64,000 bases of DNA from an uncultured Lachnospiraceae bacterium (GTDB lineage: Bacteria > Bacillota > Clostridia > Lachnospirales > Lachnospiraceae). The stretch's first letter is position 1, and every line of letters starts with the position of its first letter. The stretch lies in contig CAMNFR010000002.1 in NCBI GenBank assembly GCA_946537305.1, positions 48,564-112,563 of the forward strand, in the 5' to 3' direction. Below, in pieces: positions 12,570 through 51,362 of the stretch. The translations under genes were made by a program, and so were the position numbers. The notes below the pieces were generated by a model. It ran no database searches. It was given only the letters and a program-made list of their open reading frames with translations, and had not been told where the DNA came from.

Positions 12570-12598
12570 TTGAAGTGTCGTCAGTTTTGGGCTAAGAT
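12570..12598 (+). promoter_or_regulatory. Sigma-A-type promoter candidate for the large cluster
   Basis: TTGAAG (12570-12575), a 17-nt spacer, then TAAGAT (12593-12598). It lies about 25 nt upstream of the first cluster ORF, which has an SD (aaggaagg). Confidence 0.4.
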
Positions 12599-12622
12599 AT
12601 ATCCTAAGGAAGGTGACAGGGC

Positions 12623-13048
12623 ATGAATAATACCAGAAATGATTTTGATATGTTCCGGATGACGGAGGAGGAAGAGGGCGGTCAGAACTTTACGCAGTCG
12701 GATCCGGGGAAAGCGCAAAAAGGCTTCCGCCTGGAGGAGGAGCCTCTTTTGGTCCGCGACCGCAAAAAGATCATACAGTGCGCTGTCATTCTTGCGGCGG
12801 TATTTATTGTAAGCTATGTGATCTGGCCGATGGATATTTCTAATTTTTATCTGACAAATGCGGCTGTGGAGAAGTTTGTACAGGGACTGTTCTCTATGAA
12901 CGGAACCCTTCTTGCGGAGGGCGGAAAGGAAATGCTGCTGTGTATGCTGCAAGACCTTGCTCAGATTGGCCGGGCTTTTCTTACGGTAATTGTGTCTCTT
13001 GTGATCATGAAACTGACGGTTCTGCGAAAGAAAAAAACGAGGAGATAG
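12623..13048 (+). CDS. Small 2-TM membrane protein, no recognised family
   Basis: 141-aa ORF with an SD. It has two hydrophobic segments (AVILAAVFIVSYVIWPM; FLTVIVSLVIMKLTVL) and ends 8 nt before the next ORF. Confidence 0.55.
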   Translation: MNNTRNDFDMFRMTEEEEGGQNFTQSDPGKAQKGFRLEEEPLLVRDRKKIIQCAVILAAVFIVSYVIWPMDISNFYLTNAAVEKFVQGLFSMNGTLLAEGGKEMLLCMLQDLAQIGRAFLTVIVSLVIMKLTVLRKKKTRR

Positions 13049-13055
13049 AAGTGCT

Positions 13056-16000
13056 ATGAGTCGAGTGATCCGCTTGTTTGTCAGCTCTACCTTTAAGGAT
13101 TTTGCGGATGAGCGCGATGCGCTGATGCAGCACACATTTTCCACACTTCAGGAGGAATGCCGGAGAGATGGAATATCCTTCCAGGTCCTGGACCTTCGGT
13201 GGGGGATTTCCGAGCAGTCTGCTTTGAATAACGACACGCTCCGGATCTGTCTGGAAGAAATCGAACGGTGTCAGCGAATTTCTCCCGATGTGAATTTCCT
13301 CCTTATGGTGGGGGAGCGTTCGGGCTGGCACCCTCTGCCGACAGAAATATCCCGCGGGGAATGGGAACTCTTGATGCAGGCCGGTGAACATGCCGCGGCA
13401 AAGGATGTCGGTTGGCCCCGCTTGAAAAGCCTGATGGAAGCCTGGTATGCAGTGGATGAAAACGACATGGAGTGCCCAAGATGCCTGCGCCCGAGGGAGG
13501 GGATCTACGCTGAGGATCCAGCGGCGTTTCACACAGCAGAGAAGGAATTGAGGGAAGGGCTGGTCTGGCTGGTGGAACAAGCAGGCCTCCCGTCGGAGGA
13601 GATGGGAAAATATCAGGATTCAGCGACCACACAGGAAATCGTGAGAGGGCTGCTGCGCAATCCCGACCGGCTGCGCGGGCAGACTTTTGCCATGTTTCAG
13701 GATGATCCGGACAGTGTGGAAGATGAAATCAGCCGCGCGGAATGTCGCAGACTCCGGGAACGGATTCGACAGAATCTCCCGGACAGCCAGATTCATACCT
13801 ACCGAGTGGGCGACAATGCATACCTGGCTGCGGTAGAGGCCTTTTTACGTCAAAAAATTCAGGAAGAGAAAGAACGGTACCAGGCGATTGGCGCCTTTGA
13901 AGAGACACTGCGCAGCGAGGAGCGGGAGCAGCATTATCTGGAGCGGGGATATAGCAGCAGAGGGGAGCTGGAAGAGGCGTTTGCACGTTTTCTGGAGAGC
14001 CATGCCGGAGAGACGTTGCTGCTGACCGGCCCTTCGGGGAGCGGGAAAAGCTGGCTGATCCGTTATTTTTTGCGGGAGGCAGGCGAAAACATAACGGCAG
14101 CTGTCTTTACGGATGTGCAGCCAGCCTGTCGCCGAATGCAAAATATATACGCCTATCTGCTGTACAGGCTGGGCATCTCCGTCGGAAAAGCACCCGCAGA
14201 CAATGCCGAACTGAGGAATTGGTTCGAAAAAGCACTGCAATCTCTGCCGGAAGATCGGCCGGTCCGTATTTTTGTGGACTGTGTGGAAGGGATTGAGGAT
14301 TGGCGGGAGCAGGCGGACAGTCTGCTGGGTATCACGGTGCCCCGGAATGTAACGCTTATCGTAAGCGCCATCAGCCAAAACGCACTGAAGAGGCAGGAGC
14401 GGGAGATGAAAATCCCCTGTTTCAGCATGCCGCCTCTTTCGCGAGCGGGGGCTGTCCGTCAGATCCTGGAATACCTGGAAAAAGGTGGACGGCGGCTGAC
14501 GGCGCATCAACAGGAGATTCTTTCGGAAAATATCCCGGAGACGCCGATCCCGCTGCAGGCTGCGGTGATTGCCGAAGGGCTGATGCGCCAACGCAGCTTT
14601 ACAGCTTTTGTGCCGCAGGATTCGCTGTATTCGTTAGAGGATACCTTGCGGTATTTCTGCCTTCGGACAGGACAAAAAGAATATACGGTGCTGCGGCGTC
14701 ATATTCTGGGATATTTTGCGCTGGTGCATGTCGGGTTACAGGAAGAAGAACTGCTCCGATTATTGACAGTTGATGAAGCAGTGCAAAAAGAGATCCGGAA
14801 TATTCACGGCGATGATAACAGAAGGCTGCAGAATGCGCTTGCGATTTCGTTTCCCCCGGCACTCTGGGCCAGGGCATATTATGAGATACGTCCTGTGCTG
14901 ACGGAGATCCGTCAGGATGGAATGATATTGCTTTCCCTTCGTCATAATCGTCTGAGAGAGGCAATCCTACGTCTCCTGGAAAAAACAGAAGTGCGGGCTC
15001 TGCAGGAAAATCTGGTGCGGTATTTTCAGGACGAAGAGAGAAATCCATGGGCTTGGATTTCAGGGAAGGGAGAGATCCATCCCAACCGCAGAAAATATGA
15101 GGAGCTGGAGCCTCTGCTCCGGACGTCGGACCGGGAGGAGGACAGGCGCCGCTTCCTGGAAGATGTTAGATATGCAGACTGCGCCCTTCGCTTTGGCGGC
15201 CTTCTTTCTTTGGTGAAGATTTATGAGCAGTGGGTCCGCAGGAAAAAAGAGAGCGGGACGCCGGCGGAAATTCTGTTCCTGCTGCAGGAAAAGCCGGAAC
15301 TTTTTTCGCTGTTCCCGGATTCCTTTCTGCCGGCAGTGGTATCGCGTGGGCTGGCATCTGACAGGCTGCTCAGAGAATATCGCCTTCCGGGTTATATCAA
15401 AGGACAGGAAAAGAGCCGAAAAGCCGGAAGATATCATTTTCATGATATGGAACAAGGGCGGATGGCCCTGCGTGCCGATGGTATTCTGGCAGTCCTCTCC
15501 CGGGGAATGATTCATATGGCTGATCTTAGACTGGGAATCACACTTCCGGTGTATTGCAGGGTGCCGATGGAGGATGGCTGGATCTACTGGAATCGAGAAG
15601 ACTTATGCGTGCGGGATGAAAGCCGGCGGGTGGTCCTGTGTTTCGACGGAGAGGAATTGTTCGTGCGTGCTGTAATGCCTGCGACCCCGTATGAAAAGAT
15701 AGAGGCCCCGGACCGGCTGCAGCCGACAGATCCCTATGCCTGGCCGGAGTATGAGGTCATGTTCTCCCCGTATTACCGGCATCTGTCCTTCCGTGGGCGA
15801 AATGGCGTTACGAGAGCTGCACTTCCTTATGAGGAGGATGAATCGCCCCGGGTGCGGTTCCGCGCACATACAGTCTGCATAGAGACCAAGGGACGATATT
15901 TGGATATTATTGACGCGCAGGCAGGCCGTCTGCGTGGGAAGAGAAGAAGTTATTTTGCCATCGATGAATATACGGTTACATCCGACGGAAGGTTTGTGCT

Positions 16001-16970
16001 TGTCCGCCTGCTGGACGGCAGTATGACGTTGGTGGATACCGAAGTGCTCCCCGCTGGGGAAGCGGTCGATCTTCGGGAAAATATCGGAGGTGCGTCCGGC
16101 TTGCGGAGAACACTGGCGGAAGTGGGGAAAATGTTCTTCGCAGGCGCCAGGTCGGCCATCAATACGGATATCGCCGTAAAAGACGGATATACCGCACTTC
16201 ACAGGGGCGATGCAGATAAGGGAACAGATCTTTTGCCGCAACGGATGGTGTTTTCTCTTCGGTACGGATATGCAGCCTGCTATTATCGCAGGGGAAGTTC
16301 CAGTATGCTTGGCATTTATTCTCTGAAGGATCATCAGCTGCTCCGTATGGAGGAAGATATTCCCGAAATGTTTGAGAGCGATCAGGTACGGCTGCCCATG
16401 TACACGGTCCGGAACGGAAGATGCGTTGTTCTGTGCCTGGGTGGAGCCTGGCATCTGTATGATATAGAAAGCGGCGCGCACGAAGTTTGTGCGGAACGTC
16501 CGAAGGAGGATGCAGATGAAAAACTATCGGCGATGATCCGGGAACAATATGCGTCCGGGATCATGGAATACCGCACACAGTCGGAGGGAAGCGTGAGCCG
16601 GCACACGGCGGATCTGTCCGGCGTGGAAGGAAGGAGCGCGCTGGGAAAAATATCAGATGACGCGCTGGAAGCGGTAATTAAATCCTTACGGGTAGTGCTG
16701 TTCCGCGGAGAACGAAAATTCCGGGATGCAGGGATGCTGTATGAGGAATTAAGACATCTGCCGGTATGTTTCGATCCGGAAAAGGGATATTTCTGGCTGA
16801 TCGATCCTGTCCATGATATGATCCATGTTTATGACGTCCACGGAAGGTGCCTGGCCCGGGATCAGATTGATATGGATGCCACATGGGCGGATATAGATGA
16901 ATACGGAAGACTGGTAGTGATGTCCGGCGACAGCGGGCAGTCTGTGATCAGAGAGCTGATTACAGTATAA
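13056..16970 (+). CDS. DUF4062 (TIR-like) - STAND/NACHT-like P-loop NTPase - beta-propeller-like repeat protein
   Basis: 1304 aa. The N-terminus IRLFVSSTFKDFADERDALMQHTF...LDLRWGI is the DUF4062 pattern. Walker A is LLLTGPSGSGKSWL (14028-14051) and Walker B-like is VRIFVDCVEG. The C-terminal ~550 aa holds repeated blade-like strings (VVLCFDGEELFV, FVLVRLLDGSMTLVD, CVVLCLGGAWHLYD, FWLIDPVHDMIHVYD, RLVVMSGDSGQSVI). Confidence 0.82.
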   Translation: MSRVIRLFVSSTFKDFADERDALMQHTFSTLQEECRRDGISFQVLDLRWGISEQSALNNDTLRICLEEIERCQRISPDVNFLLMVGERSGWHPLPTEISRGEWELLMQAGEHAAAKDVGWPRLKSLMEAWYAVDENDMECPRCLRPREGIYAEDPAAFHTAEKELREGLVWLVEQAGLPSEEMGKYQDSATTQEIVRGLLRNPDRLRGQTFAMFQDDPDSVEDEISRAECRRLRERIRQNLPDSQIHTYRVGDNAYLAAVEAFLRQKIQEEKERYQAIGAFEETLRSEEREQHYLERGYSSRGELEEAFARFLESHAGETLLLTGPSGSGKSWLIRYFLREAGENITAAVFTDVQPACRRMQNIYAYLLYRLGISVGKAPADNAELRNWFEKALQSLPEDRPVRIFVDCVEGIEDWREQADSLLGITVPRNVTLIVSAISQNALKRQEREMKIPCFSMPPLSRAGAVRQILEYLEKGGRRLTAHQQEILSENIPETPIPLQAAVIAEGLMRQRSFTAFVPQDSLYSLEDTLRYFCLRTGQKEYTVLRRHILGYFALVHVGLQEEELLRLLTVDEAVQKEIRNIHGDDNRRLQNALAISFPPALWARAYYEIRPVLTEIRQDGMILLSLRHNRLREAILRLLEKTEVRALQENLVRYFQDEERNPWAWISGKGEIHPNRRKYEELEPLLRTSDREEDRRRFLEDVRYADCALRFGGLLSLVKIYEQWVRRKKESGTPAEILFLLQEKPELFSLFPDSFLPAVVSRGLASDRLLREYRLPGYIKGQEKSRKAGRYHFHDMEQGRMALRADGILAVLSRGMIHMADLRLGITLPVYCRVPMEDGWIYWNREDLCVRDESRRVVLCFDGEELFVRAVMPATPYEKIEAPDRLQPTDPYAWPEYEVMFSPYYRHLSFRGRNGVTRAALPYEEDESPRVRFRAHTVCIETKGRYLDIIDAQAGRLRGKRRSYFAIDEYTVTSDGRFVLVRLLDGSMTLVDTEVLPAGEAVDLRENIGGASGLRRTLAEVGKMFFAGARSAINTDIAVKDGYTALHRGDADKGTDLLPQRMVFSLRYGYAACYYRRGSSSMLGIYSLKDHQLLRMEEDIPEMFESDQVRLPMYTVRNGRCVVLCLGGAWHLYDIESGAHEVCAERPKEDADEKLSAMIREQYASGIMEYRTQSEGSVSRHTADLSGVEGRSALGKISDDALEAVIKSLRVVLFRGERKFRDAGMLYEELRHLPVCFDPEKGYFWLIDPVHDMIHVYDVHGRCLARDQIDMDATWADIDEYGRLVVMSGDSGQSVIRELITV

Positions 16971-16998: not shown

Positions 16999-19452
16999 AT
17001 GGCATTGACACAGGAAAACCGGAGGAAGCTGGAAGACTTAGCTTTGGAGAAGGGGGGACTTTTCCCGCAGGCGGAGCTGTTCGGCGATATGCCTGTGCTT
17101 TTTGTAGGACTGGGCGGCTTGGGAGTGCGCACGCTGCAGGTGATCCGGCGGAATATACAAGGGAGAGAAGGCGCCGCCGAGAAGGCTTTCTTTTTAGCCA
17201 TTGACAGCGATGAACATGATCTCCAGGCATATCGCGATGGCATTCATGTCGCAGATGCCGGAATGAATGAGGTGATATCCATATTTGCGCCTGGTATTGT
17301 ACCAGGGCTTTTCGGCCCCAATGGGGCTGGTGGCATACGGAAAAACGGACGTTTATTGCTGACAGCAGGCCACAAATATGAAGCAATACAGAATTATCTG
17401 AGCAGATGTGTTATGCGGATTGAATCTATACTGCATGGGATGGGGAAATTTCAGGTCATCCTAATTTCCGGTACGGGCGGCGGAACGGGCGGCGGAATTG
17501 TGGTCGATGTGGCTTATATAATCCGAAATGCAATGATGCATCTGGGAGTAGCAGCGGATCGCTATCTGCTGCAAGGGTTTCTGTTCCTGCCGGATGTAAT
17601 GTCCGGAATACCAGGGCTGATGATGGATTATGCGCAGCGGAAGATGATTGCCGCAAACGGTTATGCTGCGCTGAAAGAAATAGATTACTACCTACAGCCG
17701 CTCGCGGAACGTGAGCCTTATGTGCTGGAATTGCCGGGGCAGACGGTGACTTCAGAGGCAGCTGTACTGGACCAGTGCAAGCTCATCTCTGGGAAGACGG
17801 CTGCAGGGAACTTTCGCAGTACAGATCGGACCGTGCAGATGGTCGGGGATTGTCTGGCAGAACTAACGGCGGAAATCCATATGCCGCCCGGAAACGAAAT
17901 GCCGCTGCAATATTTGTCCGGGAATGGCTATCAAATGCTTCTCTTCGAAAAAAAGGAGATACCGGAGCGGGAAGTGCTCACGTGGACTGCGAGTCAGATC
18001 TGGCAGCAAATGATGGAGGCGTGGAGTGTCCAGGGACATCAACTGGAGCAGGCAGGGCGGCATGTGCTGGCAGGAATCCTTATGAACGACGGTCCCTCCC
18101 TTATGAACTTTGCCTTGCATAGGCTGGGGTATGATGGACAGGCTTTTCGGGCGGAGGCTATAGAGGCAGAGCCGTTTCCTACACGGGCACAACTGTTAGA
18201 TGATCCGGAATATGGTTTTAGACGGGCGGCAGAAGTGGCGGAAGTATGGAGAGGACGTATCCTGAAAAGGCTGCCTGAGCTGGAAACGGATATTCGAACG
18301 ATCATCCGGGAGAGGCTGAACAACTGCCTGGATAGGGGACCGTTCTTCGTGGCCGCCTTGCTGGATGGGAATCGTTCACACCTGTATAATAGAGGAGAAC
18401 GAGCCTGGCCGGGAATCATTCATTTCTTGAACGTGATGCGGGAATCAATGAATGAGATGGCACAGAACGCGATGCGTCGTTTTGAAATTGAGCGGCACCA
18501 GTTGCCGGAGCTGGCTGTCCGGGCATCTTCTCCTTTCGCCGGCAGAGCAGTAAAAAGTGCGTATATGGAGGAATGCTGCAATATAGCAGAGGGCCTCATC
18601 ATATATGAACTTCTGTCACGGGTCATGATCGATGTGCTGGGGCGTCTACAGAGAGAGCTGACAGGGGATCTAATAGTTAGGTGGGAGCCATATCAGGAGA
18701 TTGTTGAATATGTGGAACGAATTCTGAAGGATGATGCGGAAGCGGTTTACAACGCAGGTGTCGGAATACCGAATGAGGACGCTTTGATTGATCTGCCGGA
18801 GGCAACCGGTCAGCGGATCCGAGCGGTTCTGCACGAAATAGCAAATCCGAATCAGGTGAAATTGATTTCACATTGTATCAGTAATTCCATGCGCCTTCAT
18901 CCGGGTTGGTGGGGGGATGTCCGGGAAAATGAGGAATTCCGGGCAGCCTCTGAGATACGGGATATATTCCAGGGATATCTCCAGGGTTCATTGGAACCTC
19001 AGTTGCCGGAGAAGCTGATTATGATCTCCCGGTTTCCCGGTCATCTTGATGTCCAACAGGTAAATAACGAGTGGAACATGAACGGAACTGTTCGGCACAA
19101 TGCGCTGCAGCAGGCTGCTGATGAGATCATAGCTGCTTTTTCAGGAACGATGGCTGCGCTGCTGCCGGGTGGAGTAACACAGAAAACGTTATTCCTGGCG
19201 CCGGCGAGCACACCGGATCTTACGTCAAGAGTGACTGTGCTGCTGCCGCCGGATACCCTGAGAGGGGTGTATATGGGCGGTGCGCCAAGATATACATTGG
19301 CAGGCATACGTTATCCGGTTGCATTTTCGACGATTCCGGATATCGAAGAATACGCAAGGTTCTATCAGCAGGAACCGACAATGCCTGGGCTTCATCTGGA
19401 TGAAGAGACTCAGCGCTGGCACGATTATCATCCTTCGGGGATGTCAGTATAG
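16999..19452 (+). CDS. Tubulin/FtsZ-superfamily GTPase-like protein (Tubulin_2 / FtsZl-1-like), paralog 1
   Basis: I prefer ATG 16999 (SD aaggggga) over GTG 16981. VLFVGLGGLGVRTL is a T1-like loop. ISGTGGGTGGGIVVD (17470-17496) matches the GGGTG[ST]G signature. NGYAALKEIDYY is shared with paralog 2, and both start MAL..(6)..KL..L.L.KGG. Confidence 0.8.
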   Translation: MALTQENRRKLEDLALEKGGLFPQAELFGDMPVLFVGLGGLGVRTLQVIRRNIQGREGAAEKAFFLAIDSDEHDLQAYRDGIHVADAGMNEVISIFAPGIVPGLFGPNGAGGIRKNGRLLLTAGHKYEAIQNYLSRCVMRIESILHGMGKFQVILISGTGGGTGGGIVVDVAYIIRNAMMHLGVAADRYLLQGFLFLPDVMSGIPGLMMDYAQRKMIAANGYAALKEIDYYLQPLAEREPYVLELPGQTVTSEAAVLDQCKLISGKTAAGNFRSTDRTVQMVGDCLAELTAEIHMPPGNEMPLQYLSGNGYQMLLFEKKEIPEREVLTWTASQIWQQMMEAWSVQGHQLEQAGRHVLAGILMNDGPSLMNFALHRLGYDGQAFRAEAIEAEPFPTRAQLLDDPEYGFRRAAEVAEVWRGRILKRLPELETDIRTIIRERLNNCLDRGPFFVAALLDGNRSHLYNRGERAWPGIIHFLNVMRESMNEMAQNAMRRFEIERHQLPELAVRASSPFAGRAVKSAYMEECCNIAEGLIIYELLSRVMIDVLGRLQRELTGDLIVRWEPYQEIVEYVERILKDDAEAVYNAGVGIPNEDALIDLPEATGQRIRAVLHEIANPNQVKLISHCISNSMRLHPGWWGDVRENEEFRAASEIRDIFQGYLQGSLEPQLPEKLIMISRFPGHLDVQQVNNEWNMNGTVRHNALQQAADEIIAAFSGTMAALLPGGVTQKTLFLAPASTPDLTSRVTVLLPPDTLRGVYMGGAPRYTLAGIRYPVAFSTIPDIEEYARFYQQEPTMPGLHLDEETQRWHDYHPSGMSV

Positions 19453-19492: not shown

Positions 19493-20143
19493 ATGTTTGG
19501 AAAAATTATATTTACGGCGGTGGTTGCAGCCGTCCTTGGGAGTATTGGGATATTTTGCAATGCCAGGTGGAAAAACAGTGACCCGGAGATACGAGCACTG
19601 GCTCCTTGGGGAATAATGACGCTGATTGGATTGTTTGGCTGGATCGCTCTTCTACTGTTTTTGTTTGGAGGACTGGGGGGAGCCTGCTTTTTGTTTATTC
19701 TGTTAACGGCTGCATTGCTGGCCCTTACAGGTAATAAGGCTCTAAAGGCCGGTATGGACAGGGGTGAACTGCCGAAGCTTCTGGGAATTGTTTTATTATC
19801 AGGCTTGGGAAAATGGATGGGAACACTTCTTCGCTATACCATTATAGGTATTCCAGCTGTCAGATATCTGGAGGGTGCCGGAAAATATGGTCTGGAAGCA
19901 ATGGGAGAAGAATTATTAAGAATAGCAGAGGAGGAGGCAAAGAAGCCCCGGCAGGAGGAACCACAGCAGAGTGTCTGGGATACATACGATACATACGCTC
20001 GACAGGAGCCTGAACCCGAACCGGAAAAAAAGGTGGAAGTATGGAGGCCCAACGGACTTGTGAATGAATATCTGAAAGTAAATAGTGATAATACCATGTA
20101 TTACGATCCCGATGACGGTGAATGGCACAGAATACCGGATTAG
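19493..20143 (+). CDS. Polytopic membrane protein with acidic cytoplasmic tail, no recognised family
   Basis: 216 aa with a strong SD (gggggagag). It has 4-5 hydrophobic segments followed by a charged tail (EEEAKKPRQEEPQQ...EPEPEPEKK). Confidence 0.65.
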   Translation: MFGKIIFTAVVAAVLGSIGIFCNARWKNSDPEIRALAPWGIMTLIGLFGWIALLLFLFGGLGGACFLFILLTAALLALTGNKALKAGMDRGELPKLLGIVLLSGLGKWMGTLLRYTIIGIPAVRYLEGAGKYGLEAMGEELLRIAEEEAKKPRQEEPQQSVWDTYDTYARQEPEPEPEKKVEVWRPNGLVNEYLKVNSDNTMYYDPDDGEWHRIPD

Positions 20144-20205: not shown

Positions 20206-20234
20206 TTGATAAATTGTGCAAACTACGATAGAAT
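20206..20234 (+). promoter_or_regulatory. Internal sigma-A-type promoter candidate upstream of the giant acidic protein gene
   Basis: TTGATA (20206-20211), a 17-nt spacer, then TAGAAT (20229-20234). It sits in the largest intergenic gap inside the cluster (141 nt). Confidence 0.4.
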
Positions 20235-28908: not shown

Positions 28909-28932
28909 TAAGAGCGGTAAAATGGCGGGAGG

Positions 28933-29178
28933 ATGCAGACAATGAAAACATTGGAAGAAGAGATCAAAGCCCAGAAAATAGAAACTATACGAAAAGACGG
29001 GATGTTCCGCCTGCTTGGAATCGTGGTGGTGGTGGCAGCAGTATATTTTGCCATACAGTTTGTTCATGCAGATTTTAAGATACTGACGTTCCTGAATCCG
29101 TGGGCGAGCGCAGTTATGCAGCTGATCGGCGATCTGCTGTATCCCATCAGTGATCTGCTGCGTGAACTGATACCGTAA
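28933..29178 (+). CDS. Small single-TM protein between the two GTPase genes
   Basis: 81-aa ORF with one hydrophobic segment (FRLLGIVVVVAAVYFAIQF). The start is ambiguous (ATG 28933 or 28942). Confidence 0.5.
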   Translation: MQTMKTLEEEIKAQKIETIRKDGMFRLLGIVVVVAAVYFAIQFVHADFKILTFLNPWASAVMQLIGDLLYPISDLLRELIP

Positions 29179-36722: not shown

Positions 36723-36747
36723 AGTAGTATGCATTTATAATATATTG

Positions 36748-36756: not shown

Positions 36757-36818
36757 TATGATGTTGGCCTGTGATGGCCGTAAGATCGAAGTAAAACAGC
36801 GAAAGGAGAACTTAGGAA

Positions 36819-40481: not shown

Positions 40482-40499
40482 GGAGCAGAGGAACTATTT

Positions 40500-42305: not shown

Positions 42306-42308
42306 ACA

Positions 42309-43724: not shown

Positions 43725-43733
43725 GAGGCGCGT

Positions 43734-44315
43734 ATGATTACCGGATTACAGGTAGAGACAAAACATGATGATACCCGGGTGCTGCGCGCGATCAAGGAAA
43801 ACCGCAACGACCAGAACCAGTATCTGGTGTATCTGAATCCTAATAAAAACGGACTTTTGGCCGGAGGCGCCGAAAAGGGGCAGGCAATCCTGATTTCCGC
43901 CGGCGCCAACAATCCCAATCTGATTTCCTACGATTTCCGCCTGAAACGCGGACTGTATGATGTGGTGATTGAGCGTATTGAAAGCATTGCGGGAGGAGAA
44001 ATTCACACGGACCCGGAATCCCGATACGAGTATCCGGACCCCGTGATGGTGGGACAGCGTTATCTGGTGCGTTCCAAGGTGGAAGATACCGTCTGCTATG
44101 GCGAAGCCGGCGTGCGGGTCCGCATCCAGAGCGTGGAGGTCCCGCTGGGGCCGGAAATGGTCTATTACGTGATCGACAGAGATGAACTGAAAGACATAAA
44201 ATATTATGTTCCCTTTCACGATGAGAAGAAGATTGATTTCTTCGTCAAAGGGGTACAAAGCGGTGAGATGCAGCTGTATCTCGGCAATCCGAGCTTTCAG
44301 ATCGAACGGATATAG
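43734..44315 (+). CDS. Hypothetical soluble protein
   Basis: 193-aa ORF with an SD (aggagg) and tight spacing. No recognised family. Confidence 0.65.
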   Translation: MITGLQVETKHDDTRVLRAIKENRNDQNQYLVYLNPNKNGLLAGGAEKGQAILISAGANNPNLISYDFRLKRGLYDVVIERIESIAGGEIHTDPESRYEYPDPVMVGQRYLVRSKVEDTVCYGEAGVRVRIQSVEVPLGPEMVYYVIDRDELKDIKYYVPFHDEKKIDFFVKGVQSGEMQLYLGNPSFQIERI

Positions 44316-44336
44316 TATGTAGAGGGGGAAAAGAGT

Positions 44337-45257
44337 ATGGGTTCATTTGACAGCTGGGACGACTGGGACGATGATTTCAGTGATACCGGCACAGGAAGCC
44401 AGAATCAGAATACAGGAGGCCGTCGGAGCAGCTTTGATGATGATTACGGCAATCAGGGCGGCGGCGATTTCGGAGGCAGCGGAGGCAGCCGCAAGGGCGG
44501 CAGCTACCCCGTGCCACGGGATGAGGACCAGTACGGTGTGCGGCCGCAAGGCCCCGGCCGCGGCGGTTACACACCACCCGCGCAGCAGACAAGTGATGAT
44601 TCAGGCGTCTATGTGATCCGCAGCATCTCGGAAGTGCCGCTCTCCGGACAGGGAGCACTGAGTAAGATCTTCCGGGGCATCCCCTTCACGGCGAATAATC
44701 AGATCAATATTTCTCTGCAGGAAGCCGGGAGCCTTGGCCACGGAGGCGGCGCTATTAATGGCATCATTTACGGTAAGATTGAAAATCAGGCGTTAGGGCC
44801 CGGTATGCGGGTGAAGATCCGGGGAACGGTCAAGCGCGGCCAGATCATCATCAAGGACCTGTATGATGTAGACAGCGGCGGCCTTCCGATTGGCATCAAT
44901 CCCTACTGGGTGGATCCGATGTATCAGCAGAGCTCATCCAACCGAAGGGGAAATCCGGCTGCGATGGCAGCGGTCCTGGCAGTGATCGCTATACTGGCTG
45001 TTGCGTTTTTCCTCCTTCGAGGCGGAATCGATCCTTCAACATTGAATAAGATCAAGATAGCGGCGATCATTATCGGAGCACTGGTCTTCATCAAAGTGTT
45101 CAACATCAACATTTTTAACAACTCGTTTGTGCAGAAGGTGATACTGATCGTGGTGCTATGCGCCATCGCCTTGTACGTCCCCGGCGGGGACAGTGTGATG
45201 GTGTGCGCCATCATGATTTTTGGTCTGTATATCATGCTGAAGGGAATCATAAAATAG
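44337..45257 (+). CDS. Membrane protein with N-terminal acidic-Trp motif and Gly-rich linker
   Basis: 306 aa. The N-terminus is MGSFDSWDDWDDDFSD (44346-44378), followed by a G/S/N-rich region. The C-terminal third has 3 hydrophobic segments. Confidence 0.65.
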   Translation: MGSFDSWDDWDDDFSDTGTGSQNQNTGGRRSSFDDDYGNQGGGDFGGSGGSRKGGSYPVPRDEDQYGVRPQGPGRGGYTPPAQQTSDDSGVYVIRSISEVPLSGQGALSKIFRGIPFTANNQINISLQEAGSLGHGGGAINGIIYGKIENQALGPGMRVKIRGTVKRGQIIIKDLYDVDSGGLPIGINPYWVDPMYQQSSSNRRGNPAAMAAVLAVIAILAVAFFLLRGGIDPSTLNKIKIAAIIIGALVFIKVFNINIFNNSFVQKVILIVVLCAIALYVPGGDSVMVCAIMIFGLYIMLKGIIK

Positions 45258-45301: not shown

Positions 45302-47989
45302 ATGGCGAATGGAAATTATGGATCATTGCTGCGGGAGGATTATTCCAACGACTATGTCGTGACCCACAAGAATGACATTATTTCCCGGAATGCGCTGGAT
45401 GATCCCTTTTATCAGGGACGTCAGGTGGATCTGCCCCATATTCAAAAAGGCCAGCTTTGTCGGGTTTCCAACCAGGAGATGGCCTTTTTTCAAATACGGG
45501 GAATTTCCCGCTTCTGGGGAGAACAGGAAGACTTTGATATTAATGGAGTGATGTCGGATCTGCTCTGCGGCCTGAACAAGGAAAAAATGGGCTATGCCTA
45601 TATTCTCCGGGGAGATCGCAGCGGCATTCGGATATGCATTGGCATCGATTCATATCTGATCGAGTCTCTGAAAAGCTCGCTGATGTCCCTGTTCCCGAAT
45701 ATAAGTCTGGAACCGGTGGGGCTGGGGGACGTGGTCCCGCAGAGTATGACGGACGGCGGCATAGTTACGGGCATTCCCACGAACAAGCTTTCCGGAGACA
45801 AGCCGGGCGATGTGCAGATCGATCACATCATCCGCGGCATGGTGGGAAAAGATTTTGTCTATGTGGTATATGCTTCGGGAATCGCGCCTTACCAGGTGAC
45901 GGGATGGCATAATGCGCTGCTGCAGGAAATGTCCCATGCCTTCGAATACCAGAAAAGCGGTATCAGTGACAGCGGTACCACCATCGATAAGCAGAGCTTT
46001 GTGCACACCCGCTACTTTGAGAATCTGGAAGAACTGGAACGCACCTATCATGTAGGTCTGGAGCGTGGCATGTGGTATTACACTGCCTATTTCGGGGTAA
46101 ATGATGATGCCTCCGGAGAGGTGTTCGGCAATCTGATCCGTTCTACGTTTTCCGGGACGGAATCCCGACCGGACAAGGTCCGCACGCTGTACCATGCGAA
46201 GCCTCAGGTGATCCTGCGCCTCATCCGGAGCGGCATGCAGCTGCTGGATACCCTGGAAGACGGGATGTCTCATCCGCTGGGGGAGAGCGCCGCATATAAA
46301 TATCAGTCCATTATCAACAGTGATCAGCTGGGCGTGATCAGTGCGCTTCCTATGAAGGAGTACCCCGGGTATTATATTGATAACTACGTGGAATTTGATG
46401 TATCCAACCGACCTCGCTATAAGATTGAAGAACCGGTGCCCATCGGGGATATCATGAACGCCGGGCGTGCCGTCCCTACCGGGGTGCGAAACAGGTATTC
46501 TATCGAAAAGAATGATTACACCAGGCACTGCCTGATCATAGGCATCACGGGCGGCGGCAAGACCAATACCAGTAAATCTCTGCTGCGGACGCTGTGGCGG
46601 CAGCCGCCGGAAAAGAGGATCCCTTTCCTGGTCATCGAATCCGCTAAGCGGGAATACTGGGAGCTGCGCAATCTGGAAAACTTTGAGGATCTGATGGTCT
46701 ACACATTAGGGTCCGAGGATCCGGAAAAGGCTGTGCGGTACCGTCTGAACCCCTTTGAGACGCTGCCTGGGATTTCGCTGCAGAGCCACATCGATCTTCT
46801 GCTGGCCACCTTCAAAACGGCCTTTGAGATGTACCCGCCCATGCCGTATGTGCTGGAAACGGCGGTGTATGAGGTCTATAAGGATCGTGGCTGGAATATT
46901 GTGACCAACAAGAATGATTACGGGCTGACGCGCTACCCCACGCTGAGCGATCTGTACGACAAAATCGGCTATACCGTAGAGAACATGGGCTATGATAAGG
47001 AAGTCTCCTCCAATATCCGGTCGGCTTTGGAGGCACGCATCAATTCGCTGATGATCGGCGGTAAAGGGGCCATGCTGAATACGCCCAAATCGATCCCCAT
47101 CGAATCTCTGCTGAGCTATCCAACGGTGCTGGAGCTGGAAGACATCGGAGATGATGAGACCAAATCCTTTGTTATCGGCATTCTGCTGGTCCAGCTGTAT
47201 GAGTACCGGAAATACCAGAAGGATAAGATCAACGGTGCCAAGAAACTGCAGCATATCCTGATGGTGGAGGAGGCGCATCGCCTGCTGAAAAATGTTTCCG
47301 AATCAGCGAATCCGACGCAGGCCAAGTCTGTGGAATTTTTCTGCAACATGCTGGCAGAGATCCGTACGTATGGGCAGGGAATCTTTATTGCGGATCAGAT
47401 TCCCACCAAGCTTGCTCCGGATACCATCAAGAACACCAACCTGAAGATCGTGCACCGCACGGTGGCAAGGGAAGACCGGGAGACCATCGGTATGGCCATG
47501 AACATGACGCCGGAGCAGATCGAGTATCTGAGCTCGCTGCCCCGTGGGTTTGCTGCGGTCTATGCCGAAGGAGATAACCGGCCGAAATGTGTGAAGCTGC
47601 CGCTGGTAAAGGACAAGTATTCCCTGACCAGAGAGCAGGTGATCGGTCCTATCCGCAGCAAGGTGGATAACCAGTTGATTGATGATTTTAAAGAGATGCA
47701 CTGCGGCTGTACCTACTGCGAGCAGCGCTGCCGCTTCGGCGAAGCCATAAAGAAGAATCTTTCGGCGGTTAATATGGCCGGAGGGATTGCGGAAATTGAA
47801 AAACATAAGTATAATGTAACCGTAATCGATAAATTTATCTCCTTCCTGGAGCAGAAAAAAGTGATTTCCTGCGAAGGAATTCACGGCCGGCTGTGTGCGG
47901 CGGGATTCCTGTTGGAAAGATGTAAGTTAGATCGTGGTTATAAAAAGAAAATTCTGGCAGGGTATGTCCGCTATCTGTCAGAGAAATAG
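45302..47989 (+). CDS. HerA/FtsK-like (DUF87-type) P-loop ATPase
   Basis: 895 aa. Walker A is IIGITGGGKTNTSK (46541-46564) and Walker B is HILMVEEAHRLL. GIFIADQIPTKL and KIVHR follow downstream. The C-terminal region has a Cys cluster (CGCTYCEQRC). Confidence 0.8.
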   Translation: MANGNYGSLLREDYSNDYVVTHKNDIISRNALDDPFYQGRQVDLPHIQKGQLCRVSNQEMAFFQIRGISRFWGEQEDFDINGVMSDLLCGLNKEKMGYAYILRGDRSGIRICIGIDSYLIESLKSSLMSLFPNISLEPVGLGDVVPQSMTDGGIVTGIPTNKLSGDKPGDVQIDHIIRGMVGKDFVYVVYASGIAPYQVTGWHNALLQEMSHAFEYQKSGISDSGTTIDKQSFVHTRYFENLEELERTYHVGLERGMWYYTAYFGVNDDASGEVFGNLIRSTFSGTESRPDKVRTLYHAKPQVILRLIRSGMQLLDTLEDGMSHPLGESAAYKYQSIINSDQLGVISALPMKEYPGYYIDNYVEFDVSNRPRYKIEEPVPIGDIMNAGRAVPTGVRNRYSIEKNDYTRHCLIIGITGGGKTNTSKSLLRTLWRQPPEKRIPFLVIESAKREYWELRNLENFEDLMVYTLGSEDPEKAVRYRLNPFETLPGISLQSHIDLLLATFKTAFEMYPPMPYVLETAVYEVYKDRGWNIVTNKNDYGLTRYPTLSDLYDKIGYTVENMGYDKEVSSNIRSALEARINSLMIGGKGAMLNTPKSIPIESLLSYPTVLELEDIGDDETKSFVIGILLVQLYEYRKYQKDKINGAKKLQHILMVEEAHRLLKNVSESANPTQAKSVEFFCNMLAEIRTYGQGIFIADQIPTKLAPDTIKNTNLKIVHRTVAREDRETIGMAMNMTPEQIEYLSSLPRGFAAVYAEGDNRPKCVKLPLVKDKYSLTREQVIGPIRSKVDNQLIDDFKEMHCGCTYCEQRCRFGEAIKKNLSAVNMAGGIAEIEKHKYNVTVIDKFISFLEQKKVISCEGIHGRLCAAGFLLERCKLDRGYKKKILAGYVRYLSEK

Positions 47990-48045: not shown

Positions 48046-49695
48046 ATGGCAAATTTCTGTAATCACTGTGGAAATAAGGTGCCGGATGGGTTGGACCGCT
48101 GCCCGTATTGTGGCAAGAAAATCAAATGGCCCACGGAAAAGGGCGGGAAACATGAGATTGGCGATAATATCAGCGGCGGCGGAAAAAAGATCCTGCTTTT
48201 TGCAGGTATCGCCGTGGTAGCCGTGGCCGCCCTGGCGGGCATCGGGATGTTTGTTGAGCATAAGCCGGGGCCTGGGCCGCAGCCTACCATGGAAACTCTT
48301 GCGATTGAGCCGGAAACGGCCGTAGACTCCGGGGTGGATCATTCTGCGGAAGTACAGGTACTCCAGGATCAGTACAATCAGTTCCTGTCTGATTATCAGA
48401 GCGGTCTGGTGGAAGTGGACATGCGGGATAACGGTGCCTCCTATTACCAGGACGGAGAGCTGAGAAGTGAAGATGCAAACGCGGATGAGACCTCTGTCTA
48501 TAACCGGGAATACTATTATAAAGATGGCGATCTGTATATTATGATTCTTCGTGATCCGTCGACCGGACAGGAGAATGATGTTTATGTGCAGAACGGACAG
48601 ATCCTCCGGTGGAGAGATGTATCCGGCACAAATCACGATGATTTTTCCGCAGATTCCGATGCCATGGACACGTTGAACACGTATCTGCAGGAGGGCTATG
48701 ATCTGTACGCAGCCCATCAGGATCGCGCGTCGGCGGCCCTTGAGACCATGGCACCGGCCACACCTACAGAAGCGGCCACGCTGGCACCCACCGAAGCGCC
48801 TACAACGGTTCCGCCTACGACTGTGACAGCAGACGGATTCATCTTCCCGGATAGTGATTCGCGTTATCTTTCAGAGTCCGAACTGGCCGGTCTTAGTGAC
48901 TGGGAACTTCGGGTCGCGCGGAACGAACTGTATGCGCGTCACGGCCGGAAATTTAAAGACACGGAACTGCAGAATTATTTTAACGGCTGCAGCTGGTATA
49001 ACGGTACCATCAATCCGGATGATTTCCAGGATGAGACCATGTTCAATAAATATGAAATGGCCAACAGGGATCTGATCCGCGGATATGAAAAATCCCGCTC
49101 CGGATCGGACAACGGGGTGAATTATTCCGTGGTCAATGCATCTGGTGCGGACGACATAACCCGCTATACAGCCATGGGAAATTATCGACAGGTTACCAGT
49201 GGGGACGGCACATTTTCATTTGCCGTCCCTACTGATTTATTTAATGTTGAAGTAAGCTCAGACACACAGTATTCCTATTATTATCGGGACAGTTCCGATC
49301 AGCTGCAATACGCGCTTTTCGTGGGCCGGTTGGATGATGCGGGAGACGCTTTGTCCCGCGCGGATGCCAGGTACCGGGAGTACAGAAACTACTTTTCTTC
49401 GACCTATTTTGACAGCGCGCCAACAGAGATCAATGACAGTGGTTCAGCCCGCGGTCTGATCGGCGGATATTATGACAGCAGCAGGACCCGCGGTGCCTAT
49501 GTGATTGTCCGGAACGACGGACGTTCCACCTATTATCTGGAGTTTGATTACTATACATCTGATCCGGACAACGAACATTCCGCTGAGCGATATATGGAAG
49601 ATTATCTGTACCGAAGCTGTTCTTTCAGCGGAACGTCGTATCTTCCGAGAAATTTTGAGCTGTTCAGAACGAACGACATGGGATCAAAGAAATAA
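48046..49695 (+). CDS. Zinc-ribbon / single-TM / YARHG-domain protein
   Basis: 549 aa. It has an N-terminal CNHCGNKVPDGLDRCPYCG, a TM segment (ILLFAGIAVVAVAALAGIGMFV), and ARNELYARHGRKFKDTELQNYF, which is the YARHG-domain signature. Confidence 0.8.
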   Translation: MANFCNHCGNKVPDGLDRCPYCGKKIKWPTEKGGKHEIGDNISGGGKKILLFAGIAVVAVAALAGIGMFVEHKPGPGPQPTMETLAIEPETAVDSGVDHSAEVQVLQDQYNQFLSDYQSGLVEVDMRDNGASYYQDGELRSEDANADETSVYNREYYYKDGDLYIMILRDPSTGQENDVYVQNGQILRWRDVSGTNHDDFSADSDAMDTLNTYLQEGYDLYAAHQDRASAALETMAPATPTEAATLAPTEAPTTVPPTTVTADGFIFPDSDSRYLSESELAGLSDWELRVARNELYARHGRKFKDTELQNYFNGCSWYNGTINPDDFQDETMFNKYEMANRDLIRGYEKSRSGSDNGVNYSVVNASGADDITRYTAMGNYRQVTSGDGTFSFAVPTDLFNVEVSSDTQYSYYYRDSSDQLQYALFVGRLDDAGDALSRADARYREYRNYFSSTYFDSAPTEINDSGSARGLIGGYYDSSRTRGAYVIVRNDGRSTYYLEFDYYTSDPDNEHSAERYMEDYLYRSCSFSGTSYLPRNFELFRTNDMGSKK

Positions 49696-49723: not shown

Positions 49724-50809
49724 TTGGATATTAGAGGGATTTTTGGGGGGAAAAGCAGTACAGTGGCCGGCGGCAAAAAGAAGCCATCCGAGGATGATGC
49801 CATATATTATTACGGTCGTCAGCTTTCAGGCGTGGATCATATTGTGTATTCTCAGCTGGTCATGGGCCTGAAAAAGATGGAACCCAAAATCGGCCTGTAT
49901 GGGGGAGACTTTGATTCCGTCAGCCGTATTTCCCAACTGGTGTTGGCGGATCATCCGGAAATATTCTGGTTTGCCGGCGCCGGACAGGTGACGCAGAAAG
50001 GAAGCCAGCTGTTCTTTTCTCCGTTTTATACCATGAGCGAAGGCGTAAAGAACAACCGGCAGAAGCAGTTGGAACAGGCAGCAAAGAACTTTAAACGTTC
50101 CGTACGGGGACGTAAAACTTCTTATGACCGGTTGCAGGCGGCTTTTACCTGGCTGGTAAAAAACACCACCTATGTGGACGGTGCGCCGGATAATCAGAAT
50201 ATCTGCAGTGTGTTTCTTAACCACAAGAGTGTCTGCGCCGGTTATGCCAAATCCTTACAGTATCTGCTTCAATCGGTGGGGATCGAATGCCTGTATGTAT
50301 GGGGAGATGTCATAGGAAAAGGAAGGCACGGCTGGAATATCGTGAATCTTGATGGGGCCTATTATCAGACAGATGTGACCCTGGGGGATCGCTCCTTTTC
50401 AGACGGGACATCCGTAGGAAACGGACTTCCTGCTGAACTGGAAGCGGAGTACGGCTACATGTGCATGACCGATGAAGAGGCCCGACGCGACAGGATCGAA
50501 AATGTTACAGAGCTGGGGGTGACACTTCCGGCGTGCATATCAACGGCCATGAATTATTACCGGAGGAACAATCTGTTTTTTGCGGGCGGGGCACAAGGTG
50601 CCTGGATAAACATGGAGCAGAGACTGTCTAAGGGGGAGACCTCTTGGTGCTATCAGTTTGCGTCCGAATATGAATATGATATGTTCCTGCAGGATATAGA
50701 CGGTGGACGTTATACCGATCTGGCGCTGCGGCACCTGAAGAAGAACCGGATAAGTACCTGTACCAGCCGTATTCCTTCTTTGTACGTGGTCATCGGCTGG
50801 GTCAGGTGA
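49724..50809 (+). CDS. Transglutaminase-like (Cys-His-Asp) domain protein, paralog of 52548-54236
   Basis: CAGYAKSLQYLLQSVGIECLYVWG...GRHGWNIVNLDGAYYQTDVT is a transglutaminase-core pattern. The start is uncertain. TTG 49724 (SD aaaggg) is the first start after the upstream stop that retains the region homologous to the paralog (AIYYYGRQL..ADHPEIFW). Confidence 0.7.
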   Translation: MDIRGIFGGKSSTVAGGKKKPSEDDAIYYYGRQLSGVDHIVYSQLVMGLKKMEPKIGLYGGDFDSVSRISQLVLADHPEIFWFAGAGQVTQKGSQLFFSPFYTMSEGVKNNRQKQLEQAAKNFKRSVRGRKTSYDRLQAAFTWLVKNTTYVDGAPDNQNICSVFLNHKSVCAGYAKSLQYLLQSVGIECLYVWGDVIGKGRHGWNIVNLDGAYYQTDVTLGDRSFSDGTSVGNGLPAELEAEYGYMCMTDEEARRDRIENVTELGVTLPACISTAMNYYRRNNLFFAGGAQGAWINMEQRLSKGETSWCYQFASEYEYDMFLQDIDGGRYTDLALRHLKKNRISTCTSRIPSLYVVIGWVR

Positions 50810-50826
50810 TTTTCGGGAGGCAGCCT

Positions 50827-51282
50827 ATGAAACGGGTTCTGGTCAAGTCCGTGTACGATGCTTTTGATTATGTGATGGCACATTACTATCCCGCAGGACT
50901 GGAAGACCTGTCGGAAAAGAAGGATAGCTATGCCGTGATTTCTATTCAGGACACTCACACGGGCGGGTTTGGCTTTGCTTTTCAGGAAAATAAGTTTTGT
51001 CAGGGCGTCCTTAGCCTGTATTTTGATGATATCGAGAAAGAGGTGGATGGAGCGGTCCTGTTCACACGGCGACAGGCAGAACAGATCATAGAATTTGTAA
51101 ATTCACACCGACAGGCAGAAACGCTTCTTGTTCATTGCTACGGCGGAGAGTCTCGTTCCAGAGCGGTAGGCGCTTTTGCAGTAAAGTTGTTGGGTGGAGA
51201 TAACAGACGTTTGCTGGAAGGTGGGAATGCGAATCGTCATGTATATGACACGCTAATAGGCGCCTGGCAAAAACAGATGTGA
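50827..51282 (+). CDS. Cys-based phosphatase-like protein (CX5R motif)
   Basis: I prefer ATG 50827 (SD gggagg). LLVHCYGGESRSRAVG fits HCX5R(S/T). LSLYFDDI upstream resembles the predicted protein-tyrosine-phosphatase (COG5350-like) pattern. Confidence 0.6.
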   Translation: MKRVLVKSVYDAFDYVMAHYYPAGLEDLSEKKDSYAVISIQDTHTGGFGFAFQENKFCQGVLSLYFDDIEKEVDGAVLFTRRQAEQIIEFVNSHRQAETLLVHCYGGESRSRAVGAFAVKLLGGDNRRLLEGGNANRHVYDTLIGAWQKQM

Positions 51283-51308
51283 TGATAACAATTATAAATG
51301 AGAAAATT

Positions 51309-51362
51309 ACAACCCAGATAGCAGCGTGAAATACCTGATTTCGTGCTGAATCTGGGTTGTAA
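51309..51362 (+). terminator. Long imperfect hairpin ending the + strand cluster (terminator candidate, no clear U-run)
   Basis: tacaacccagat ... atctgggttgta forms a 12-bp outer stem with additional inner pairing. Confidence 0.35.

Follow-up and report, generated by a model that had tools for sequence, protein, structure and literature searches.

Tubulin_2, vWA and DO-GTPase genes in a gene row of an uncultured Lachnospiraceae bacterium: a candidate GTP-gated conflict system and its neighbours

Described systems and the conserved core

We analysed a window of 64,000 nucleotides from an uncultured Lachnospiraceae bacterium (contig CAMNFR010000002.1, positions 48,564 to 112,563), in which 22 open reading frames (ORFs; g1-g22) encode, among others, two Tubulin_2 proteins, two vWA proteins and two GTPases, and compared it with the systems closest to it. 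The first of these are the 'GTPase-centric systems' built from double GTPases (DO-GTPases) and GAP1 (Kaur, Burroughs, Iyer & Aravind, eLife 2020; PMC7159879). Those of the GAP1-N2 type with a tubulin theme are confined to Firmicutes and Actinobacteria. The Firmicutes version comprises two tubulin genes with a C-terminal coiled-coil, a GAP1 gene with a highly polar tail and two vWA genes, one fused to YtkA and one with multiple transmembrane (TM) segments and an extracellular vWA domain; GAP1-N2 systems also include a protein with rapidly evolving FNIII repeats. Concerning the GTPases, one usually carries two N-terminal Zn ribbons and the second four N-terminal TM helices plus a single one at the C-terminus. 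The second described system is a neighbourhood of FtsZl1, vWA and GTPase genes for which membrane remodelling was proposed (Makarova & Koonin, Biol Direct 2010; PMC2875224). Both papers are computational predictions without experiments. The third group is found in bioRxiv preprints of 2026, which show by experiment that the DUF4062 (NIR) domain is a TIR-like NADase with anti-phage activity: NIR-STAND-repeat proteins (Avs2-type), Swarozyc, Evangelion, Vulcan and Vesta are single-gene abortive-infection defences, and the NIR catalytic glutamate is E97, E98 or E108 in the proteins assayed.

Based on its gene content, the core g8-g18 (27367-45257) appears to belong to the DO-GTPase systems of the GAP1-N2 type that have the tubulin theme (PMC7159879). 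Both have two TRAFAC GTPases that are paralogous and carry Cys motifs at the N-terminus and a DxxGE Walker B; directly downstream of them comes a GAP1 gene with a polar tail. Both also have two Tubulin_2 genes whose C-terminal parts are long and helical, a pair of vWA genes (one of them polytopic, its vWA external), many TM components, variable linked genes and a Firmicutes host. There are also differences: the second tubulin is here a species-specific paralogue located 17 kb upstream and not adjacent, g13 has no Pfam match to YtkA at E up to 1, and the HerA, the hyperacidic zincin/HD protein and the NIR-STAND neighbour lie outside the published description. The core had been described gene for gene in 2020, computationally only, and carries species-specific additions here. 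The first-pass annotation had asked if the system was one characterised before; a computational description exists and an experimental one does not. The same annotation had pointed to the NTP-gated conflict systems of the Aravind group, and the DO-GTPase and GAP1 domains it suggested for checking are both present. Its link to the FtsZl1 neighbourhood agrees with PMC2875224: shared are a Tubulin_2 (FtsZl1) protein that carries a coiled-coil-like extension, vWA proteins with an intact metal-ion-dependent adhesion site (MIDAS) and a P-loop GTPase that is divergent and has Cys-rich motifs at its N-terminus. Unlike that neighbourhood, the row has no OmpA partner and no protein kinase (a ZorB/MotB-like protein is found in the relative L026), and whereas remodelling was proposed there, the context here favours conflict.

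Relatives were found by searches seeded with g11, g16 and g14, their surrounding DNA was fetched, and all 22 proteins were compared with 77 loci by tblastn and ORF clustering. The gene order g8-g17 (27367-44315) is kept in at least 12 loci at 30-66% protein identity, in Erysipelotrichaceae, Thomasclavelia spiroformis and other uncultured Firmicutes. The twelfth position of the core, occupied here by g18, is variable: g18 has homologues in L022 and L025 and analogues in L026 and L079, a soluble protein with the g7 N-domain is present in Erysipelotrichaceae, and a Zn-ribbon (ZnR)-TM protein elsewhere. What flanks the core differs in every lineage: upstream of it lie genes for pyruvate formate-lyase (PFL), an ECF transporter or a sigma factor, and on its downstream side MutS2 or MetRS. 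Of the other core-type loci that were fetched, only three have the HerA-like gene g19 after the core, to which the GTPase-less variant L079/L080 can be added; its homologues after a g18-like gene share 53% (L022), 65% (L025), 36% (L026) and 37% (L079) identity with it. Several close relatives have one tubulin gene only, and no homologue of g1, g2, g4, g5, g6, g20 or g22 is found in any fetched locus. Co-occurrence in other genomes is seen for g8-g17 but not for these genes, and the single operon-scale supercluster proposed by the first-pass annotation is not borne out. These comparisons show that only g8-g17/18 is a conserved unit, which g19 joins in some of the loci; as to the edges, g3-g7 form an extension specific to the lineage and g20-g22 are loosely associated. 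The distribution of the system is sporadic, even within families: a set of 5.8 billion proteins yields 51 GAP1 clusters, and one of 1.84 billion yields 117 representatives.

These results bear on the explanation that g1-g22 are co-transcribed subunits of one integrated 22-gene machine. The layout of the row speaks for it. All 22 co-directional + strand ORFs of the first-pass annotation were found, in an unbroken chain of ~39 kb (12623-51282) with intergenic distances from -4 (overlap) to 140 nt; the tight junctions 25221/25224, 31002/31004, 33262/33266 and 42305/42309 are exact, a purine-rich ribosome-binding site precedes most starts, and hairpins lie at both ends. Furthermore, g3 is paralogous to g14 and the N-domain of g7 is associated with the system elsewhere, so that the upstream block is not wholly foreign, and TIR-Tubulin_2 fusions in other loci make a functional link between g2 and g3 conceivable. 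On the other side stand the genes that are absent from every related locus, the species-specific g3, and the fact that NIR-STAND proteins act as single genes. In addition, a comparison with the strain variant L077 gives a DNA identity of 87-92% for the left flank together with g1 and the larger part of g2; from the 3' end of g2 through g3 and g4 into the beginning of g5 it is about 98-99%. The jump, at about 16350-16650 in the 3' end of g2, marks a recombination breakpoint, and the history of g1-g2 therefore differs from that of g3 onward; by sequence, this fits a recent horizontal exchange or sweep of the block from g3 onward. Finally, the widest gap in the row, 140 nt 5' of g5, holds TTGATA-17-TAGAAT (20206-20234; 10/12 consensus positions), the top-scoring promoter-like match in the region, so that g5-g7 may have their own promoter; promoter and terminator consensus scans of the region gave no greater enrichment than in shuffled sequence. 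A single integrated machine is, in our estimate, clearly improbable. The features of the row are listed in Table 1.

Table 1. Genes and hairpins of the row, with their coordinates in the window
Feature	Coordinates	Strand	Description
Hairpin, left edge	12457..12503	+	Terminator-like hairpin with T-run, 3' of a 768-aa ORF
g1	12623..13048	+	141 aa, 2 predicted TM segments, no family match; only in this species
g2	13056..16970	+	NIR (DUF4062) TIR-like domain, P-loop STAND NTPase, ~750-aa C-terminal region
g3	16999..19452	+	817-aa Tubulin_2 (FtsZl1), shorter divergent paralogue of g14; start probable
g4	19493..20143	+	216-aa membrane protein; species-specific
g5	20284..25224	+	1646 aa; acidic repeats, then Q/E-rich helical region, zincin, HD
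g6	25221..25934	+	237 aa, no family match; start overlaps g5 stop by 4 nt
g7	25974..27350	+	458-aa soluble protein; internal DWDWDDDW motif
g8	27367..28908	+	DO-GTPase; GLPRVGKS P-loop, DMPGE Walker B, TQSD
g9	28933..29178	+	81-aa single-TM protein between the two GTPase genes; in 10 loci
g10	29251..31002	+	Second DO-GTPase; GTARVGKT, DMPGE, TCSD
g11	31004..33262	+	GAP1: N-terminal alpha/beta, GAP1-M, ~470-aa helical solenoid, disordered polar tail
g12	33266..34405	+	379 aa; cytoplasmic helical N-domain, 3 TM segments; core member, in 15 loci
g13	34461..36722	+	Exported vWA protein; VWA Pfam 4.2e-14, MIDAS DKSGS
g14	36819..40481	+	1220-aa Tubulin_2, conserved tubulin of the system
g15	40500..42305	+	601-aa conserved soluble protein; in 15 loci
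g16	42309..43724	+	Polytopic vWA; VWA Pfam 3.1e-12, MIDAS DNSGS
g17	43734..44315	+	193-aa conserved protein, beta-rich-looking sequence; no family match; in 12 loci
g18	44337..45257	+	306 aa; DSWDDWDDDF N-terminus, G-rich linker, small beta domain, 4 TM
g19	45302..47989	+	HerA/FtsK-superfamily ATPase, GITGGGKT at 414; accessory, in a subset of systems
g20	48046..49695	+	Zn-ribbon, one TM, extracellular YARHG domain (Pfam 3.5e-23)
g21	49763..50809 (start approximate; ORF opens 49505)	+	Transglutaminase-like, cysteine-protease fold; Transglut_core 3.9e-9
g22	50806..51282	+	158 aa, no family match; species-specific
Hairpin, right edge	51307..51363 (about)	+	Long near-perfect hairpin

Proteins of the core and the second tubulin

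The domain calls of the first-pass annotation were upheld by Pfam, which supports two Tubulin_2, two vWA and two DO-GTPase proteins, a DUF4062-STAND and a HerA/DUF87 protein. Both tubulins match Tubulin_2 (g3 2.2e-33, g14 1.9e-49) and each other (BLASTP 2e-48, 23% identity over ~880 aa). The ORF of g3 opens at 16981, and its start is probably the ATG at 16999, since the alignment with g14 begins there. The tubulin/FtsZ fold, which had been set beforehand as one of the features on which the proposal would stand or fall, is found in the AlphaFold2 model of g3 (50 homologues; predicted local distance difference test, pLDDT, 85; predicted template-modelling score 0.78). In Foldseek the model matches 61 chains of the PDB at E<1e-3 over its first ~310 residues, and among the matches listed 50/50 are CetZ, FtsZ, TubZ or tubulins; for FtsZ and CetZ the target-normalised template-modelling score is 0.45-0.52 over ~310 columns, with a probability of 1.00. 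According to the model, g3 has the FtsZ/CetZ/TubZ fold, followed by a long-helix domain (with a 74-residue helix, 516-589) and a small C-terminal alpha/beta domain. A search of 5.8 billion proteins gave a single close homologue of g3, a strain variant (98%), and its next relative is 22% identical.

The conserved tubulin g14 contains the motifs GGTGSG (192-197) and NGYAALKEIDY (249-259). As GGTGxG and NGYAALKExDY, both are invariant in 18/18 g14 orthologues, and both are also found in g3 (the first as GGTGGG); from the sequence, we infer that NGYAALKExDY is a T7-like motif. The identity of g14 to its relatives is 45-61% in the 15 core-type loci and falls to ~23% in more distant variants. No match to it was found in 50,697 phage records, nor any relative in IMG/VR, and its only plasmid matches are two Meiothermus megaplasmids; a prophage or plasmid origin, which we considered, is unsupported by these searches.

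The two GTPases match DO-GTPase2 of Pfam (g8 1.9e-8, above the cutoff; g10 3.3e-6, 27.4 bits, cutoff 27) and are paralogous (29% identity, 5e-56). The internal duplication suggested by the first-pass annotation holds for g8/g10 and g3/g14, which are the only paralogue pairs among the 22 proteins. The P-loop, the DxxGE Walker B and TxxD are invariant or nearly so (at least 10/11) in the orthologues of both; DMPGE itself is present in 10/11 orthologues of g8 (E299) and 12/12 of g10. Concerning the Cys residues, which had been read as Zn ribbons, the GTPase call and the conserved Cys stand, but each protein has a single split 4-Cys site with its knuckles ~170-190 residues apart (g8: C14, C17, C188, C191; g10: C19, C22, C204, C212). 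All four are kept in 11/11 g8 and 12/12 g10 orthologues.

The GAP1 gene g11 begins 1 nt past the g10 stop, in an ORF that opens at 30947. Its own match to GAP1-M lies below the cutoff (E 7e-4), and 31 of the 33 family members match, the best at 4e-8. Neither g11 nor any of 33 relatives matches GAP1-N2 of Pfam, even at E up to 1; a distant GAP1-family member, P0262 (E 3.7e-44 to the profile), does so weakly (1.4e-4, 22.4 bits, cutoff 24). No GAP1-family member matches GAP1-N1, and a GASH protein is absent. The AlphaFold2 model of g11 has a pLDDT of 86, while the polar tail (717-752) is below 50 and disordered. The tail ends in the basic-aromatic LGGLFGRKW, its orthologues end in a KKKxFGFFKK-type peptide, and this end may be a membrane-targeting helix. 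The top PDB match of the GAP1 model is TagF, a type VI secretion system regulator (9t0n; E 0.019, probability 0.99, template-modelling score 0.38), and C9orf72/SMCR8 appear lower in the list of structural matches. A DENN/longin-like GTPase-regulator fold was considered on this basis; at these values it is too weak to claim and is a possible hint. The TagF/DENN-like resemblance is not mentioned in Kaur et al. (PMC7159879).

The vWA protein g13 begins with a Sec signal peptide (VRA|EDE), followed by the vWA domain and an ectodomain of ~300 aa that looks like a beta-sandwich; after a single TM segment comes a cytoplasmic tail of 195 aa. The ectodomain has only weak Ig-like matches (GBD_Hemicentin 1.7e-4, Big_2 0.022). 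The Sec signal peptide places the vWA domain and the beta-rich ectodomain outside the cell. For g16, the topology predicted from the sequence is three TM segments, an external vWA domain, three TM segments and a G-rich cytoplasmic tail, and both vWA domains are thus predicted to face outwards. The MIDAS of g13 is intact in 15/15 orthologues, and that of g16 is also intact. As for g15, it has no match in the PDB or Pfam, and PDB sequence searches with the family profiles of g15 and g14 gave nothing meaningful. The possibility that g15 is a second tubulin was rejected, as hhalign of its family against the tubulin family gave a probability of 0.3%.

A further trait common to several proteins is an acidic-aromatic peptide. 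The cytoplasmic tails of g13 (NDFDEDFFS, 36700-36722) and g16 (YDDDFFNDF, 43700-43724) each end in one, after a low-complexity linker. Most g16 orthologues (P0052-P0088: DDFF, DDDF, DDWxxY) have acidic-aromatic ends as well, and so do most of the g13 orthologues that are close (…DDFDDFTF); loci L004-L024 were included in this comparison. Similar motifs occur at the N-terminus of g18, within g7 (Table 1) and at the N-terminus of g5. We suggest that the acidic-aromatic peptides could be docking signals for a common cytoplasmic receptor; they are not mentioned in PMC7159879 or PMC2875224.

Neighbouring genes, variant loci and candidate functions

Upstream of the core, g2 matches DUF4062 of Pfam (2.8e-9, 37.5 bits, cutoff 24.7), AAA_22 (1.6e-7) and AAA_16 (1.1e-6), with weak matches to NPHP3_N and nSTAND1, and its Walker A is GPSGSGKS at 325. 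Residues 3-74 align with the solved NIR domain of human TEP1 (11gz_A; E 6e-13). The alignment ends at residue 74 and an insert of g2 follows the Pfam core, so that the position of the NADase Glu is not mapped. The C-terminal ~750 aa have no family match and no recognisable repeat family, and matches to the Avs models of PADLOC are marginal. With its N-terminal NIR, central STAND P-loop NTPase and long C-terminal region, g2 shares the architecture of the NIR-STAND proteins, of both the PsAvs2 type and the eukaryotic NWD1/TEP1/NPHP3 type. Because this architecture acts as a single-gene NADase defence in the 2026 preprints, g2 is probably an NLR/Avs-like, autonomous NADase defence gene, separate from the core. 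The recombination breakpoint between g1-g2 and the remainder of the row lends support to this view. The adjacent g1 has ~90% aa identity to its counterpart in L077.

The giant protein g5 has no Pfam match as a whole. Its residues 1-660 are hyperacidic tandem repeats (EDIPEEELEEEI, EELEEQ), and its D+E content is 39% overall. After removal of the acidic repeats, the zincin DUF6782 (1.1e-6, 28.6 bits, cutoff 27; around HELRH 1087) and HD (3.9e-5, 24.3 bits, cutoff 22) exceed their curated cutoffs, which bears out the HExxH/HD call of the first-pass annotation. We regard g5 as a putative effector, with g6 possibly its partner or immunity protein, to judge by the overlap of the two genes. The N-terminal domain of g7 (~aa 29-228) recurs beside the core system elsewhere in varying positions (tblastn: 31-36% identity in L006, L011, L014-16 and L023).

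Downstream of the core, g19 matches DUF87 (Pfam 6e-9). It shares the DUF87 P-loop core with HerA-Sir2/DUF4297, MADS mad8, CedD and VirB4 (E 1e-7 to 1e-17), at scores that are all far below the family cutoffs; unlike the HerA defence systems, it has a unique ~400-aa N-terminal region and no nuclease or Sir2 partner. ZnR-TM or YARHG proteins are also found downstream of related systems in L024, L034 and L043, and whether g20 is part of the system is uncertain. Homologues of g21 adjoin the system in L009/L010 (37%), Pseudoflavonifractor loci (~31%) and L079 (23%).

Several variant loci inform on function. In L078 (227-9486), a 533-aa TIR_2 protein and an FtsW/RodA-TIR_2 fusion flank a Tubulin_2 protein that itself has a TIR_2 domain at the C-terminus, and a HipA toxin module adjoins the locus; P0123 (TIR-Tubulin_2-TIR_2) is a second such protein. 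In L026 (21306-23599), a ZorA-like (606 aa, E 5e-17) and a ZorB-like gene (E 1e-23) lie 12 nt past the HerA homologue, and in L034 a PDC-S20 (KAP NTPase) candidate adjoins a related system. The ZorAB-like pair echoes the OmpA/MotB association of Makarova & Koonin. The variant L079 (5203-22465)/L080 contains AAA+, YbjN, vWA, Tubulin_2, polytopic vWA, ZnR/TM (g18-like) and HerA (37% to g19) genes, from which it follows that a vWA-tubulin-vWA-HerA module can exist without DO-GTPases and GAP1. HerA is directly followed by genes for LHH (toxin), SUKH_5 (immunity) and TNT (toxin), then by a small ORF and a gene for a transglutaminase-like protein. In their N-terminal halves LHH and TNT are acidic and of low complexity, as is the case for g5, and the element also carries genes of the type found in integrative and conjugative elements (DDE transposase, DUF4316, LPD25, YodL).

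We read the region as a composite defence island whose core is an envelope-spanning, GTP-gated conflict system, and we give this reading an even chance of being right. The conflict context counted for it comprises the NIR-STAND gene g2, the Tubulin_2-TIR fusions, the ZorAB-like pair of L026 and the PDC-S20 candidate of L034. Also counted for it are the agreement with the published system, the conserved unit g8-g17 with its changing flanks, the sporadic distribution, the tubulin fold of g3, the conserved tail peptides and the exchange between strains. The functional steps that follow are proposed from what the analysis shows: which genes are present and how they are conserved, their motifs and topology, and the fold of the tubulin. 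By sequence, g13 and g16 display their vWA/MIDAS domains outside the cell, together with the Ig-like ectodomain of g13, and would sense or anchor there; their acidic-aromatic tail peptides would dock a cytoplasmic partner. Based on their conserved linkage and motifs, g8 and g10 with the GAP1 g11 could form a GTP-dependent threshold switch at the membrane. Once the switch is thrown, g14 would polymerise into a scaffold, a step suggested by its conserved motifs, GTP-binding and T7-like, and by the FtsZ fold; g3 may join in this species. The scaffold would concentrate or activate variable effectors, here g5 and g19, and the invader would be blocked or the infected cell killed. The gene g2 (with g1) would be a separate NIR-STAND NADase sensor that neighbours the core by chance. 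By analogy, a membrane-embedded sensor coupled to a cytoplasmic effector is shared with Zorya (ZorAB); the window has no MotAB-like genes, and the likeness lies in this analogy and in the neighbourhood of one relative, L026, whose operon holds a ZorAB-like pair.

A number of points weigh against this proposal. The GAP1-N2 assignment was reached by way of the weak transitive match of P0262 only. Neither GTPase has the 4+1 TM helices of the published system: no TM helix is predicted in g8 or g10, which have only a conserved hydrophobic C-terminal helix. There is no clear FNIII-repeat protein, and fn3 has no Pfam match in any protein at E up to 1. PADLOC-DB v2 gives no match for g3-g18, generic HerA/mad8 matches for g19 and a marginal one for g2; NCBIfam names no core protein, and our literature search found no experimental work on any DO-GTPase/GAP1/Tubulin_2 system. 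The roles given to g5 and g19 are guesses. Most of the related loci lie amid housekeeping genes and not in obvious defence islands, and the toxin/immunity cassettes of L079 point to a conflict of another kind, namely export.

According to this export explanation, the vWA, Tubulin_2, polytopic vWA, g18-like TM and HerA/FtsK proteins would form an envelope-spanning delivery machine for antibacterial toxins with acidic low-complexity parts; g5 would be the cargo here, g6 its immunity protein or chaperone, and the DO-GTPases and GAP1 would gate the machine. It draws its support from the LHH/SUKH_5/TNT cassettes directly after the module in L079/L080 and from the acidic N-terminal halves of LHH and TNT, as well as from the outward-facing vWA domains and the 4-nt g5/g6 overlap, which is the usual toxin-immunity layout. 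ATPases of the FtsK/HerA/VirB4 class power type IV and type VII secretion systems, and g19 also matches the CedD and VirB4 models. However, the cassettes occur in one lineage only, one without DO-GTPase/GAP1, and no HerA is found in the Erysipelotrichaceae/Thomasclavelia core-type loci whose downstream flank was fetched. In addition, 20 kb separate g5 from g19 further downstream, and neither a secretion signal nor a known trafficking domain can be recognised in g5; no component that would form a channel was identified, and a tubulin-driven secretion system has no known precedent. We consider toxin export unlikely. Its most specific form, an unrecognised tubulin-dependent export machine for acid-tagged toxins (g5 here, LHH/TNT in L079) in which the acidic-aromatic peptides on five components dock and DO-GTPase/GAP1 or AAA+/YbjN are interchangeable gates, is distinctly unlikely.

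Another explanation is that of Makarova & Koonin (PMC2875224): the system would serve housekeeping membrane remodelling, in which it would shape or repair the membrane or the cell wall (in division, sporulation or vesicle formation, for instance), and have no role in conflict. The FtsZ fold of g3, the many TM components, the external vWA and Ig-like domains, the transglutaminase-like and YARHG envelope proteins that recur nearby and the placement of most related loci among housekeeping genes are all in keeping with it. However, the system is distributed very sporadically, also inside families, each lineage has its own insertion site and the accessory content is variable. In some loci Tubulin_2 is fused to TIR, the neighbours include NIR-STAND, ZorAB-like and PDC-S20 proteins, there are signs of recombinational exchange between two strains, and division is presumably handled by a canonical FtsZ. 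A purely housekeeping role is, on balance, very unlikely.

Under the preferred reading as a conflict system, the locus bears on the possible use of a tubulin homologue by bacteria as a polymer in immunity or conflict, in parallel to the filament-forming immune assemblies of eukaryotes. It is a compact, well-delimited test case with a defined 11-gene core. The mutational targets are the P-loops, GGTGSG, the MIDAS and the acidic-aromatic tail peptides, with g5 as candidate effector, and the neighbouring NIR-STAND gene g2 can be used as an internal positive control for defence. The toxin-linked L079 and the ZorAB-linked L026 variants give contrasting predictions with regard to immunity and export.

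Edges of the row and flanking genes

Of the terminator and promoter pair that the first-pass annotation had placed upstream of the row, the hairpin was found (12457-12503; RNA fold -25 kcal/mol, z -3.8), whereas the promoter-like hexamers at 12570-12598 agree with the consensus at only 8/12 positions. The long hairpin downstream was also recovered (~51307-51363; -33.3 kcal/mol, z -8.6).

Tubulin_2 occurs in another context as well: in L032, L033, L036-L038, L040 and L046 (Lachnospiraceae and one Bacteroides metagenome-assembled genome), a conserved 531-aa protein lies directly 5' of a ~840-aa tubulin, a length near that of g3, with no DO-GTPase or GAP1 nearby. Just 5' of the terminator-like hairpin is the 768-aa ORF (10136-12442), which has no match in Pfam, NCBIfam or PADLOC and 94% aa identity in L077. 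On the other side, 1.3 kb past the cluster and after a PfkB kinase, a second transglutaminase-like protein of 562 aa (52548-54236) clusters with g21 in the ORF clustering.

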